Assembly (NCBI GenBank): GCA_040386775.1
Contig: JAZKEU010000017.1
Location: 85,464 to 149,463, forward strand
Source: Bdellovibrionota bacterium
Lineage (GTDB): Bacteria > Bdellovibrionota > Bdellovibrionia > Bdellovibrionales > JAEYZS01
Direction of reading: 5' to 3'
Length of the DNA stretch: 64,000 nucleotides
The notes beneath the pieces are model-generated. The model had not been told where the DNA came from. It saw nothing but the letters and a program-made list of their open reading frames with translations, and did no database searches. Positions 24,189-28,646 of this stretch are shown here, in pieces (the stretch's first letter is position 1; each line of letters begins with the position of its first letter). The translations under genes and the position numbers were made by a program.

Positions 24189-26033
24189 TTGGAAAAATAC
24201 ATCGCATTGAACGCCCTTAATACCTTCAAAGAAAAAGCTTTAGAAAACTGGAAGCTTGTGATTCTTGTTTTGGTAGGCGCTATTTTTGCTAATCTTTATT
24301 ACGTAAAAGAAAATATCATCAGCAATCAAATTTTTAGTGGGATCTATCCCAGTCAAGCCCCAGTCTTTAGAACCTACAAGACTACGGGAAATACTTTTTA
24401 TCAGAAAAAGGATTCAAGAAAATGGTTGTTCTTAAGTGGAGAAGAAATACTTTCGAATGGAAGTGAAATTCAAACAGACGCTGATTCCCATGCGATTCTT
24501 TCTTTTGTGGGGCAAAGCGGAAGAGTAGAGCTTTCTGAAAAAACTCATGTTGGAGTAATTAAAAACGGAAACGACACCACTATTGATTTTAAAAAAGGCG
24601 AGATTTACATCAATTATCAAGCAGGAAGTGCTCAGAAACCTCTTTTTGTTAAAATTGATCAAAAAGTTTTTAAAATGACGAATTCCGATCTCTATATTTC
24701 TGGCGATCTTGAAGATCAGGTACAAGTTTCGGTAGAATATGGGAAGACTACGATGGCTCTTGGTCAGCAAGTGAGCACTCTTGAGAAAGGGCAGTCGGTT
24801 TTCTTTAGGAGTGACAGAGACTACACAGTTGAAGATTCAAAATTTAAAATTAAAAACCCTTTCAATTATGATCGATACAACCTTGAAAAAAATGAATACA
24901 GAGTTCGTTTTGCTTTTGAGCCTTTTTCAGAAAACTACCAAGTTCAACTCATGGTGGGGTCTTCTCTTGAAACTATGACTCCGCACTTTGCTCAACCGCA
25001 GACTTTTCCGCCGAATCTTCCTGAAGTAGAATTTGGAATTCCTTTTAAAAAAGGATCTTACTATTGGCAACTGGTGGCATTCGAAGGAGCTAAGCCTATT
25101 TTTTTGTCTCATGTAAAAAGATTTTTTGTAGAACCTCAGTCTGCGATTCAATTGGTAAAACCTCTGGTCAATTCAAAGTTCCAATTGATAGATGGTAAAG
25201 CAGATGTACAGTTTCAGTGGGATAATCCTTCTCAATTGGAAAAAGCCTTCATAGAAATTTCAGATCGCAGAGATTTTTCGAAAACTCTCGTTCATGAATC
25301 CATTCCAGAGAATAACTATTTCAATCAAGAATTTAGAGAAGTTGGAGATTATTATTGGAGGGTGAGTGGTTTTCCATTTGGCACTTCAGATCTTGTCGCG
25401 AGTGCAGTAGGCAAGTTGAGTATAGTCAATGATGTTGTTCCTCAGCAGGTGAGAGTGATTTTTCCAAAGGGTAAGACAGTTCTTACAACATTATCACTAA
25501 AAAATTCGGACATTACTTTTCAGTGGACTAAAAATTCGGCGACCTCAGTTTATCAGGTGGAAATTAAATCTCTGAAAGACAATAAAATATTCGAATTTAC
25601 AACCGAAGATACACAAATCAAGGTCAAGGATCTTAACCCAGGAAAATACAGTTGGAAGGTCTCTGATAAAAAATCGAATTTGGTTTCCACAACGGAAGAA
25701 TTCAGTGTGGTCCATACGAAAAGGCTGAACTTTTTGTCGAATCTCTCTAAAGGTTCTGAGGAGTTTGGATTTTTAAGCTGGCAGCAAGGACCCAAGGGGA
25801 CTGTTCAGTACCGGGTGGAAGTGCTAAGGATTGGCTCGAGGTCAGATTTCAATGCTTTCTTTGATGAAAAGAGCAGCACCAAGAGAAGTCTCGAAATCAA
25901 AGGAGATAGAATCAGTTACAAGAATTTTTCAGATGGAATTTATGCATTTAAAGTTTATGCGTTAGATTCAGAGAAAAATATTTTAGCAGATTCTAATTTA
26001 AAATTTTTAAAAGTTGGAAATCCTAAAAAGTAA
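24189..26033 (+). CDS. Membrane-anchored hypothetical protein with a FecR-like domain and repeated beta-sandwich-like modules
   Basis: TTG start per the track. One N-terminal TM. The DADSHAILSFVGQSGRVELSEKTHV segment is FecR-like. At least three modules of about 90 aa share the pattern F(Q)W ... Y ... EI ... G-x-Y-x-W-x-VS. Confidence 0.55.
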   Translation: MEKYIALNALNTFKEKALENWKLVILVLVGAIFANLYYVKENIISNQIFSGIYPSQAPVFRTYKTTGNTFYQKKDSRKWLFLSGEEILSNGSEIQTDADSHAILSFVGQSGRVELSEKTHVGVIKNGNDTTIDFKKGEIYINYQAGSAQKPLFVKIDQKVFKMTNSDLYISGDLEDQVQVSVEYGKTTMALGQQVSTLEKGQSVFFRSDRDYTVEDSKFKIKNPFNYDRYNLEKNEYRVRFAFEPFSENYQVQLMVGSSLETMTPHFAQPQTFPPNLPEVEFGIPFKKGSYYWQLVAFEGAKPIFLSHVKRFFVEPQSAIQLVKPLVNSKFQLIDGKADVQFQWDNPSQLEKAFIEISDRRDFSKTLVHESIPENNYFNQEFREVGDYYWRVSGFPFGTSDLVASAVGKLSIVNDVVPQQVRVIFPKGKTVLTTLSLKNSDITFQWTKNSATSVYQVEIKSLKDNKIFEFTTEDTQIKVKDLNPGKYSWKVSDKKSNLVSTTEEFSVVHTKRLNFLSNLSKGSEEFGFLSWQQGPKGTVQYRVEVLRIGSRSDFNAFFDEKSSTKRSLEIKGDRISYKNFSDGIYAFKVYALDSEKNILADSNLKFLKVGNPKK

Positions 26034-26034
26034 A

Positions 26035-27051
26035 TTATTTTTTCTTTCGCAATTCATCGGCAAGTCTTGCCACTTCTTCTTCGGTTGTTGAGAGTTCATC
26101 GGTTTTTGAGAGATCAAACCGTAAGCTGTAATCCTTTTGAGATACTTTGCGAATGTTTCCCTCAATGGCGCCGAGTCTTTGTTGAAATTTTAGATACAAT
26201 ATGTGAAGTGCTAATAAAATTATGATCGAGATAGCAAAGAAATTAAAAACTCCAATTTCTATAAAGGTATATAGAAATGCATTAGCACGAGGTTTAGTAA
26301 AGCCTAGCATGTAAAGGTTCTTTAGAACTTTATAGTTAAAAACATTTCTATTATCAAATTGGCTTAGAGACACTTCAGCAACACCGGAGGATTTTGATTC
26401 GTTTTGCAGTGTTCTTAAGAAAGAAGATTCATCGACAAGTTTTTCTTGAATTAAGAAATTTCCTTTTGTATCCATCAAGCTCAGCTGGCACTTTTCATCC
26501 GAATGGAGAGTGGAAACAAATTGATCAGTAAAGAGCGTGATTCTAATCAAGTGTTTTGAGGTAAAGCTTGTGATGTTATTGGGAATATCGAGCACTAGAA
26601 CAGGCATGTCTGAAATTTTACTTTCTTGTAGGGTGATCTGCTCAGAGTTTGCGCTAGGGGCTATGAGTCCTTGATCGACCTTGATGTATTCGCTCTGTGC
26701 AATTTTATAAATATCGACAACGACATCATTTAATTTAAAATCTTTGAGAACCCATTCTTTTCCATCGTGTTCGTAATAACTGATCGCAAACCACTTGGAA
26801 TCAAAGAAGGTATTTTCACTGTTTTCAATCCAGAGTTTAGAGTTGTTCACATTTTCTAGTAATAGCTGCTTAATCTGATAGGACTTGTCCTTTAAGTGAT
26901 AGATACAGGACTGAGAAACCTCGGTGTTGAGTTTCTCTGGAATGATTGAGGTTCCAACAAAAATAAAACTCGCAAGCATCAAGAGTAGCGTTAGAAAAGC
27001 TACGGCAAAAATTCTGAGAGAATAATAATTTTTTTGGTTAGACATCATCAT
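26035..27051 (-). CDS. Membrane sensor-like protein: extracytoplasmic domain plus HAMP-like segment, no output domain
   Basis: Two TMs flank a domain of about 230 aa. The C-terminus LGAIEGNIRKVSQKDYSLRFDLSKTDELSTTEEEVARLADEL looks like a HAMP helix pair. The protein ends 30 aa later. Confidence 0.5.
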   Translation of the reverse strand: MMMSNQKNYYSLRIFAVAFLTLLLMLASFIFVGTSIIPEKLNTEVSQSCIYHLKDKSYQIKQLLLENVNNSKLWIENSENTFFDSKWFAISYYEHDGKEWVLKDFKLNDVVVDIYKIAQSEYIKVDQGLIAPSANSEQITLQESKISDMPVLVLDIPNNITSFTSKHLIRITLFTDQFVSTLHSDEKCQLSLMDTKGNFLIQEKLVDESSFLRTLQNESKSSGVAEVSLSQFDNRNVFNYKVLKNLYMLGFTKPRANAFLYTFIEIGVFNFFAISIIILLALHILYLKFQQRLGAIEGNIRKVSQKDYSLRFDLSKTDELSTTEEEVARLADELRKKK

Positions 27052-27569
27052 GTCTTATATCGACACGTTAAGAGGGAGAAATTAGGCTAGAAATTTTTGA
27101 GCACAAAAGGATTGGGTGGGAGGGTTTTCCTCTCCGCCCCCAAGCTAGGACTGTTTGATTTTGGTCTTTGTCGTCCCGGGTCTCCACGATCGCGGAAGGG
27201 ACAAGCGATTTACACAGTTCTATAGAGCAAGGTGTGTGCCATAGGTCTAGCGAGATGGTGTGGCAGTATTTTGGATTTGATCGCGGCGAGAAAAATAGGT
27301 CAGTGTCATTGTAACACCTGTCGTATACAACTGTGAATTTTGGTGAATGACTTCATCCGTGAATGTCACCACTATGCTGTTTTTTAATGTGAGAGATAAG
27401 GCGCGCTTATTGTAATTTCTCGAGAGAAAATTTGAATTTTACATCACAAATTATTATTTCATGGATAAATCATTCTTTGTTTGTGAGAGAAAATTTTTTT
27501 ATGAAAATGGTTGGAGGAATTTTTGTGGAACTTGTTTTTTTTGGGAATTTAATTTTTTTAGAAGTGCGG

Positions 27570-27746
27570 AGAAGGAAGGCATCCTGCCTGCTGAGAGCAC
27601 TGCTCTCAGACTCTCGCTTCTGCCGGCCATCGTGGCCGTCAGATATTTATTAAAAAATATTAAAGCTAAGATCGGCTGGCCACGATGGCCAGACGAAACG
27701 GGTTCAAAAGGGCAGTTGCCCTTTTCAGGCAGGATGCCTTTCTTCT
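27570..27746. other. Nested inverted-repeat element predicted to fold as a closed four-helix junction (ncRNA or MITE-like element, unclassified)
   Basis: 21-bp closing helix 27570-27590/27726-27746 with one G-T position. Inner helices are 27591-27598/27602-27609 (8 bp), 27625-27637/27678-27690 (13 bp, perfect, 40-nt AT-rich loop) and 27706-27714/27717-27725. The linkers are 0/15/15/0 nt. Confidence 0.5.
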
Positions 27747-28016
27747 GAATGACGCAGTCTCAGTACGGAAAACTAGGGGGTACCTTTTTTTGGTCACTTT
27801 GCGGTTTTAGCGTGTTTAGAGTTTTGACAGGCTTTTTTTATTGTGATTTCAGATAGTTAGTGGTGGGTTAGATTAAGTGAGTTTTAAAACTTTATATCTT
27901 TAGTCGCGGTGTTTGTTGGTTAGGCAGTTTATAGGTTTTAAAATATCAGTGATTTCAGTAGCTTGTATTTATACCCAAATCTAGGTTTGGGTCTTTTTCT
28001 TGTAATGTATAATAGT

Positions 28017-28646
28017 ATGAGAGCCCTTCCTAAATTAAGGACCCTAGTCCTATCCATTCTAATAGCTTCATCGGTAGCACTTGTAGCGTGTCAGCCTAAG
28101 CTTCAGCCAGAAGAGGATTGTAACTTTGTAATGAGCTCTGACATTCAGCGTGTATCGTGGAAGAACAAACTGCCTGTGAAGCTTTATATCTCACCAGAGG
28201 TGCCTACAGAGCTTAGAGAATCAATTAGAATTGCCGCATCTAAATGGAACCTTGAAATTGGTAAAGAAGCTCTATTAATCTATGAGTCAGATAACATTCC
28301 TTCAACGGTTCAAAAAGACGGTATCAACGTAATCTATTGGGAAGAATCTTGGAGTTCAGGTAAAGCTTCGGAGCAAGCGCGTACCACCATCACTTGGAGA
28401 GGCGATACCATCAATGAAGCGGACATCCTCGTAAATGCAAAAGATCACAAATTCTCAGCGTTTGGAGAGATTGCGCCTGGTAAAATCGATTTCACAAGTT
28501 TGATGGTTCATGAGTTAGGGCATGTTTTAGGTTTACAACACGTATCAGGTGAGCCAAGCGTAATGGCGCCAACGCTCGCAGAAAATACGCCGCGGCTTAC
28601 AATTGAAGAAGTGGACGTTAACTCATTGAAATGTGAATACAATTAG
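28017..28646 (+). CDS. Matrixin-like (M10 family) zinc metalloprotease lipoprotein
   Basis: MVHELGHVLGLQHV is HExxHxxGxxH, followed by the SVM Met-turn. The M at 28017 precedes the lipobox SSVALVAC. The track ORF starts at 27963. Confidence 0.8.
   Translation: MRALPKLRTLVLSILIASSVALVACQPKLQPEEDCNFVMSSDIQRVSWKNKLPVKLYISPEVPTELRESIRIAASKWNLEIGKEALLIYESDNIPSTVQKDGINVIYWEESWSSGKASEQARTTITWRGDTINEADILVNAKDHKFSAFGEIAPGKIDFTSLMVHELGHVLGLQHVSGEPSVMAPTLAENTPRLTIEEVDVNSLKCEYN

Follow-up and report, generated by a model that had tools for sequence, protein, structure and literature searches.

Bacterial MITEs and nested palindromic repeats (e.g., Correia/NEMIS, ERIC, and RPE) are small, non-coding, and intergenic, with terminal inverted repeats and strong folds. 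Classic MITEs are derived from DDE transposons, are accompanied by target-site duplications, and are multi-copy. A REP is a short palindrome with a GTAG tag; two REPs in inverted orientation make up a REPIN, which folds as a single hairpin and is presumably mobilised by a RAYT, and the REPIN illustrated from Pseudomonas fluorescens SBW25 is 89 bp long (PMC3337134). GTAG REP families have been described from the PVC superphylum, Cyanobacteria, and Chloroflexi; the dimers have spacers of 20 to 100 bp, which in some cases end in small stem-loops, and some dimers lie within longer palindromes (PMC3733652). The same study describes TIR families linked to RAYT-like genes ("TIRYT/TIRtron"), which are untagged, in some cases self-complementary, and moderately abundant or rare (PMC3733652).

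Here we describe a nested palindrome located in an intergenic gap of a 64-kb stretch of DNA, the whole of which is referred to as the window. The element shares with bacterial MITEs its small size, non-coding nature, terminal inverted repeats, strong fold, and intergenic position, but no DDE origin, target-site duplication, or multi-copy state was seen in the window. Like REPINs (Bertels & Rainey 2011, PMC3116915, PMC3337134), it is non-coding and has no target-site duplication, and the apex of its arms is identical to that of RAYT-flanking hairpins from other phyla. It differs from REPINs in its size (177 bp), in a spacer that forms a three-branch junction, in weakly self-palindromic arms that carry no GTAG/GTGG tag, and in being single-copy in its lineage, with no RAYT found in the searched sequence. 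The GTAG REP dimers with structured spacers (Di Nocera et al. 2013, PMC3733652) agree in architecture with the repeat family described below, whereas the spacers found here are longer (~100 to 135 nt) and the window copy is untagged. The untagged TIRs of the TIRYT/TIRtron type (PMC3733652) are nearer to the untagged arms of the window element, but no TIRYT gene is known in the lineage and the window apex is shared with the GTAG-type family. Our preferred reading, to which we assign a probability of roughly 0.6, is that the element is a lone, unusual, DNA-level relative of the selfish REP-doublet/RAYT palindromes and lies in an insertion-tolerant spacer.

Structure of the nested palindrome

The original prediction had called the 965-bp gap between the divergent genes at 26035 to 27051 (-) and 28017 to 28646 (+) unusually long. 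This gap (~953 to 965 bp) is indeed the longest in the window, the runners-up being ~535 and ~515 bp. The four helices drawn within it, the G-T position of the closing helix, and the linkers of 0, 15, 15, and 0 nt were all reproduced at the same coordinates (Table 1). The RNA MFE structure (-105.1 kcal/mol) was the four-way junction, compared with -59.5 +/- 4.2 kcal/mol for dinucleotide shuffles (z = -10.8), and none of 200 shuffles matched this value. The complementary strand (z = -10.2) and the element under DNA folding parameters (z = -9.1) folded about equally well, which indicates a DNA palindrome. Under DNA parameters, the arms of helix 2 formed two separate local hairpins. Small palindromes, missed in the original prediction, are present within each helix-2 arm and, less so, within each terminal arm, and a REP-like apex mini-hairpin (AGGCA-TCC-TGCCT) is found at 27577 to 27589 inside the left terminal arm. 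Inner hairpin 3 has an A-run/T-run shape that resembles a weak bidirectional terminator. Apart from the element's own, no long inverted repeats at most 400 nt apart were found in the whole 64-kb window.

TABLE 1 Coordinates of the element's parts and of the palindromes occupying the same variable segment in three other lineages
Feature	Coordinates	Strand	Remarks
Whole nested palindromic element	27570..27746 (177 bp)	.	Closed four-way junction; counterpart in the L002/L033 gap
Left terminal arm, AGAAGGAAGGCATCCTGCCTG	27570..27590	.	Core GGCATCCTGCCTG, common to ~105 inverted-pair elements of other phyla; closing helix with 27726-27746 of 21 bp (20 Watson-Crick pairs and one G-T, 27575/27741)
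Right terminal arm, CAGGCAGGATGCCTTTCTTCT	27726..27746	.	Inverted copy of the left arm, one G-T
Inner hairpin 1, CTGAGAGC-ACT-GCTCTCAG	27591..27609	.	0-nt linker to the left arm; pairing 27591-27598 / 27602-27609
Helix 2, left arm	27619..27643	.	Core GGCCATCGTGGCC (27625-27637); imperfect palindrome TCTGCCGGCCA-TCG-TGGCCGTCAGA
Helix 2, right arm	27672..27696	.	Core GGCCACGATGGCC (27678-27690), forming a perfect 13-bp helix with the left core; imperfect palindrome TCGGCTGGCCA-CGA-TGGCCAGACGA
Apical loop of helix 2	27638..27677	.	40 nt, A/T-rich; most variable part between the window and L002
Inner hairpin 3, AAAAGGGCA-GT-TGCCCTTTT	27706..27725	.	Abuts the right arm (0-nt linker); pairing 27706-27714 / 27717-27725
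L004 palindrome	L004:9305-9442		DNA fold z = -9.3
L005 palindrome	L005:2623-2784		z = -5.6
L135 palindrome	L135:146-207		Perfect 30+30-nt hairpin, ending 4 nt short of the conserved CCTTTTTGG right block

Assembly errors can make palindromes, and an assembly or chimeric artefact, or mere chance, might be suspected given that the L003 contig terminates within the element and that L125 has a giant perfect palindrome at its contig end. Against this, the fold stands at z ~ -10 with 0 of 200 shuffles as good, and the SRA assembly L001, which derives from a separate read set, is 100% identical to window positions 25210 to 27790, so that the structure is no assembly artefact. Moreover, a diverged orthologous copy was found in two independent assemblies (i.e., an NCBI MAG, L002, and another read set, L003). 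The artefact or chance reading is effectively refuted, its probability being close to nil; the structure is genuine and lies well outside what chance would produce. The long perfect or near-perfect palindromes found exactly at contig ends (L004:16708-16771 and L125:1157-1386) are probably assembly artefacts and are not to be counted as elements.

The gap and its element in related lineages

The flanking 338-amino-acid (aa) protein had 18 homologues, and the gap was recovered from nine distinct lineages with protein identities of 94% to 55%; one of the orthologous contigs belongs to a Bdellovibrionales MAG (named via L033; GCA_031374125.1, JANMFM01). The gene order (M10 peptidase, gap, 338-aa gene) is kept in all orthologous loci, and the gap is 705 to 966 bp long on contigs carrying both flanking genes. 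It is tripartite, consisting of a highly conserved left block (~27100 to 27345), conserved motifs on the right (from 27785), and, between them, a variable A/T-rich segment in which the element is located. Among the nine orthologous gaps, only that of the closest relative, L002, has a window-type element, and the more distant lineages have unrelated sequence at its position. No alignment with a relative ran convincingly across the junction as an empty site would, and L121, whose flanking protein is 85% identical and which would have dated the insertion, has just 43 nt upstream on its contig.

In a comparison of the window with L002, a difference was found at 1 of 102 stem columns, as against 14 of 81 for loops and linkers (indels among them) and 67 of 791 for the rest of the gap. 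For these two window-type sequences, Fisher tests gave p = 5e-5 for stems versus loops and p = 0.004 for stems versus the surrounding gap. The single stem difference affects the loop-closing pair of helix 3 (T27717 -> C in L002), and none of the four named helices has compensatory changes. The divergence of loops relative to stems indicates that the pairing, or the stem sequence as such, has been maintained. In the right arm of helix 2, the flanks are altered at six positions in L002, and the arm's own palindrome remains paired at 10 of 11 positions, with one T-A -> C-G double change on our reading of the alignment. This is a weak hint that the arm-level hairpins may matter.

A REP/RAYT family with the same arm core

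A search of GTDB, with each species represented by one genome, for two 11-mer arm cores paired at the spacing seen in the window yielded 110 loci compared with ~2 expected by chance (our own estimate); ~105 are real elements, approximately five are chance or unrelated matches, and one is the orthologous Bdellovibrionales copy. The carrier MAGs are labelled as Verrucomicrobiota, Planctomycetota, Acidobacteriota, Cyanobacteria, Chloroflexaceae, and others, with up to 16 loci in one MAG and 14 in another. The family arms are mostly GTAG/GTGG-tagged hairpins (e.g., GTAGCGGCAGGCA-TCC-TGCCTGCCG), the tag being GGAG in an acidobacterial subfamily, and solo hairpins and tandem arrays also occur. Throughout the family (L008 to L117; e.g., L041:5989-6866, L043:5142-5796, and L080:4560-5295), the apex CAGGCA-TCC-TGCCTG is invariant, and the doublets are ~165 to 190 bp long and usually form three-branch junctions.

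At eight loci, a gene is located beside or between the family hairpins. The open reading frames (ORFs) between hairpins in L035, L041, and L043 scored 87 to 96 bits on NCBIfam NF047646 (REP-associated tyrosine transposase; cut-off, 80), and six hairpin-associated ORFs passed Pfam Y1_Tnp. The RAYTs of the family are 33 to 84% identical among themselves, and the hairpin apex is shared nonetheless. The hairpins flanking RAYTs in L035, L041, L043, L080, L081, and L084, all from phyla other than that of the window, have the 13- to 14-nt apex (A)GGCATCCTGCCTG.

The original prediction had stated that no feature explained the structure, a statement superseded by the link between the arm core and a RAYT-associated repeat family. 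The regular layout that it had emphasised is typical of this family: a closing helix with three branches is the modal fold (41 of 110 elements), and linkers of 0/0 nt next to the closing helix are the commonest (40 of 110), both counts including the window and L002 copies. A literature search for the motif returned unrelated primers only, and the hairpin sequence GGCATCCTGCC is absent from the text of PMC3733652. Among our side results, this cross-phylum REP/RAYT family, with its invariant GGCA-TCC-TGCC apex, diverse RAYTs, and three-branch doublets, is possibly of greater interest than the window element.

Some carrier labels appear implausible, namely, those of L017, L051, L063, L065, L071, and L080 ("uncultured Klebsiella"); of L019, L084, L087, and L109 ("Bifidobacterium/Bifidobacteriaceae"); and of L009 and related RFSE01 loci ("Proteobacteria"). 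The doubtfully labelled contigs have ~60 to 65% GC and carry REP doublets of the Verrucomicrobia type as well as RAYTs that share 84% identity with one from Pedosphaera, and the MAGs in question are probably mislabelled bins. Many carriers (L033 [OTE_70b], L021 and L100 [OTE_75], and GL72/GL93/GL140/VAR/GFS) seemingly come from the sampling series of the Bdellovibrionales MAG, and a transfer from prey into the predatory lineage is conceivable. In a Planctomycetia MAG (L113:4295-5250), tandem arrays of tagged hairpins with a 30-nt period (GTAGCGTAGGCATCCTGCCTGCGTCCGTCC) lie beside a RAYT-like gene.

Relation of the window element to the family

The window element resembles the family in the core and length of its arms, in its overall size, and in the architecture of its junction, and the inverted repeat extends beyond the core for 10 to 12 nt in the family and for 10 nt in the window. 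Outside the 13- to 14-nt core, similarity to the family is not above base composition, save for the adjacent (A)GG; an extra resemblance to the acidobacterial subfamily (GCGGAGA...) was gone when tested against composition. The window arms begin AGAA in place of a tag, and the hairpin formed by an arm on its own is 5 bp long, with an MFE of -6.7 kcal/mol compared with a family median of -17.4 and -6.9 for the weakest member.

No further copies were detected in the 64-kb window at up to three mismatches for the arm or two for the inner core, no solo cores were present in 155 kb of Bdellovibrionales DNA, and the JGI metagenomes contained no window-type arms (AAGGCATCCTGCCTG pair). The related MAG JANMFM01 had one match to the paired core, diverged copies being beyond the reach of the scan. 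A tblastn search covering the window and ~90 kb of orthologous loci found no RAYT. Given the missing GTAG tag, the weak arm hairpins, the single copy, and the lack of a RAYT nearby, we describe the element as REPIN-like and not as a proven REPIN; it is probably a relative or derivative of the REP-doublet family that works, or formerly worked, alike. A RAYT flanked by AGGCATCCTGCCT hairpins together with several copies, if present, would make this a genuine REPIN population; with neither RAYT nor other copies, the element would be an orphan, and a function would have to be sought to explain its conserved stems.

The sequences flanking the element (...AGAAGTGCGG on the left and GAATGACGCA... on the right; GTGCGG / GAATGA) contain no direct repeat and hence no target-site duplication. 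Such an absence is expected of HUH transposition. A classic DDE-derived MITE was rejected, as there is no target-site duplication and only a single copy in the 64-kb window. The MITE-like palindrome had been one of the candidates of the original prediction and came closest of them, for which reason we regard that interpretation as partly supported: the evidence favours it in the form of a REP-doublet (REPIN-type) element related to a RAYT-associated family, and neither a multi-copy state nor target-site duplication was seen.

A possible history of the element is as follows. Its inverted terminal arms bear the apex hairpin GGCA-TCC-TGCC, which elsewhere forms part of GTAG-tagged REP hairpins presumably mobilised by the RAYTs (HUH/Y1) whose genes they flank. 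Such elements would travel as single-stranded DNA hairpins, leaving no target-site duplication. One copy may have inserted into the variable, insertion-tolerant spacer between conserved, divergently oriented blocks once the lineage with a 79%-identical flanking protein had branched off, in an ancestor shared by the window organism and the Bdellovibrionales MAG GCA_031374125.1. This copy would now be solitary and atypical (i.e., untagged, with a 5-bp arm hairpin, no RAYT within 64 kb, and stems apparently under constraint).

The stem conservation reported above counts against the REP-doublet reading, being unexpected in a dead orphan copy, and implies some function or maintenance that this reading does not supply. 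The reading thus leaves the conserved stems of the lone copy unaccounted for, as well as the recurrent unrelated palindromes described below. If the lineage lacks a RAYT, a solitary untagged relative with conserved stems bears on the persistence or co-option of such elements.

The helix-2 hairpin, together with its 13-nt flank CTCTCGCTTCTGC, recurs within long palindromes on unrelated metagenome contigs of 66% GC, a sequence match that suggests a second hairpin family nested within the first. These contigs (L123:3660-3940, L126:300-580, and L132:1-265) have nested imperfect palindromes of ~250 nt with no Rfam match, which share the inner hairpin GGCCA-NNN-TGGCC and the flank with the window and carry hairpins with a CATCC-type loop (GGCACATCCATGTGCC).

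RNA, terminator, coding, and recombination-site readings

Rfam 15 yielded no match at the gathering threshold in the whole window. When the gap was searched at E <= 10, the best overlapping matches reached 16 to 18 bits against thresholds of 72 to 107 and represented miRNA/snoRNA noise; the related loci had no family match except one tRNA, and a tRNA/tmRNA scan of the DNA found none.

The original prediction had also proposed a novel structured non-coding RNA (ncRNA), in which case one strand of the gap would be transcribed into a four-way junction. In favour of this, the structure is predicted to be extremely stable, its predicted multi-helix junction of ~180 nt is a feature in common with structured ncRNA families in Rfam, the lone non-Watson-Crick position is a G-U on the plus strand and an A-C on the minus strand, and stems are kept while loops vary between the window and L002. 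However, no Rfam family matches even at E <= 10, and the fold is equal on both strands. The helices are long and perfect, with hardly any wobbles or bulges, which is atypical of RNAs, and they do not covary. Furthermore, seven other distinct orthologous lineages lack the element, no promoter-like or terminator-like signals frame it on either strand, and its arm core is part of a transposase-associated DNA repeat family. We consider an ncRNA improbable. A match to a repeat family and absence from orthologous loci without covariation, either of which the original prediction had said would reduce the structure to a fortuitous or selfish palindrome, are essentially what we observed. For annotation, the case illustrates that a long intergenic gap can hold a striking four-helix junction that is a DNA palindrome of the REP-doublet type and no RNA gene.

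An intrinsic terminator was rejected, as no T-run follows the closing helix on either strand. The sole terminator flag at the element came from the 5-bp mini-hairpin of the right arm followed by TTCTTCT, a tail that belongs to the closing helix. The two ORFs crossing the element (27432 to 27653 and 27461 to 27748), previously judged to be nonsense-like, are broken in L002, the closest relative, by indels of 2 nt and 1 nt, and a coding reading was discarded.

The GGCCNNNNNGGCC arms resemble SfiI sites, and a vector, plasmid, or phage origin was tried and rejected: the plasmid matches were chance A/T-rich ones, phages gave none, and viral contigs had no match to the element. Given that no similarity to plasmids, phages, or viral contigs was found, a construct or vector scar is excluded. 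It is also very improbable that the element serves in site-specific recombination, as an origin of replication, or in hairpin resolution. Nested inverted repeats with an A/T-rich centre recall some origins and recombination sites, and the gap is A/T-rich, but there are no integrase, Rep, or partition genes nearby, the gene order around the gap is conserved with no trace of an integrated element, and the cumulative GC skew has no local inflection. This candidate of the original prediction fell away for want of supporting genes and of plasmid or phage similarity.

Recurrent palindromes in the variable segment

Three lineages (L004, L005, and L135) have their own, unrelated strong palindrome in the same variable segment (Table 1), and in L004 and L005 this palindrome is the only internal long inverted repeat in the fetched locus. 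The segment contains no strong palindrome in five of the nine lineages. The recurrence suggests that the site is an insertion hot spot or, alternatively, that a hairpin is selected for there, and unrelated palindromes recurring at one intergenic site provide a small natural test between the two.

The palindrome might be a co-opted structural element, kept because a strong hairpin or cruciform is useful here, whatever its origin (e.g., as an insulator or supercoil sink between divergent conserved units, or as an RNA 3'-end barrier), with different lineages filling one slot with different palindromes. The contrast between stems, loops, and surrounding gap is consistent with this, as are the unrelated palindromes, the position of the segment, which has a conserved promoter-like site of the minus strand (27337 to 27308) on one side and the conserved motifs upstream of the peptidase gene on the other, and the end of the L135 palindrome just before the conserved block. 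However, the five lineages without a strong palindrome show that it is dispensable. No U-run follows the closing helix and the conserved T-run is 39 nt away, so that the element is no canonical terminator. The test for selection is thin because just two window-type sequences exist, and a permissive spacer would gather insertions by chance too. We regard co-option as possible, at well below even odds.

A more specific version is a "palindrome slot," in which selection keeps a strong cruciform or hairpin at this site and a REPIN-type element has been domesticated, for example, as a supercoiling-sensitive insulator between divergent promoters. This version is more doubtful still, and, if true, it would explain why a single-copy element has conserved stems and why three other lineages carry unrelated palindromes at the site.

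Other conserved non-coding features of the gap

The motifs upstream of the M10 peptidase gene (27785 to 27800, 27843 to 27852, 27949 to 27958, and 27973 to 27992) are conserved; they include CCTTTTTGGTCACTTT, GTGATTTCA (twice), and a terminator-like hairpin right before the start codon, and are probably regulatory sites.

On the minus strand, the block at 27100 to 27345 has a mean column identity of 80% in eight lineages (flanking protein identity, 55 to 94%) and contains long invariant runs (e.g., AAAGACCAAATCAAACAGTCC...GGGGGCGGAGAGGAAAA..CCTCCCACCC). Frame-shifting indels exclude a coding role. A conserved extended -10 promoter-like site, running from 27337 to 27308 on the minus strand, is directed at the 338-aa gene. 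The block has no Rfam match, and compensatory changes are present in one of its hairpins. It is a candidate for a new small RNA or 5' leader, and its novelty may exceed that of the palindrome.
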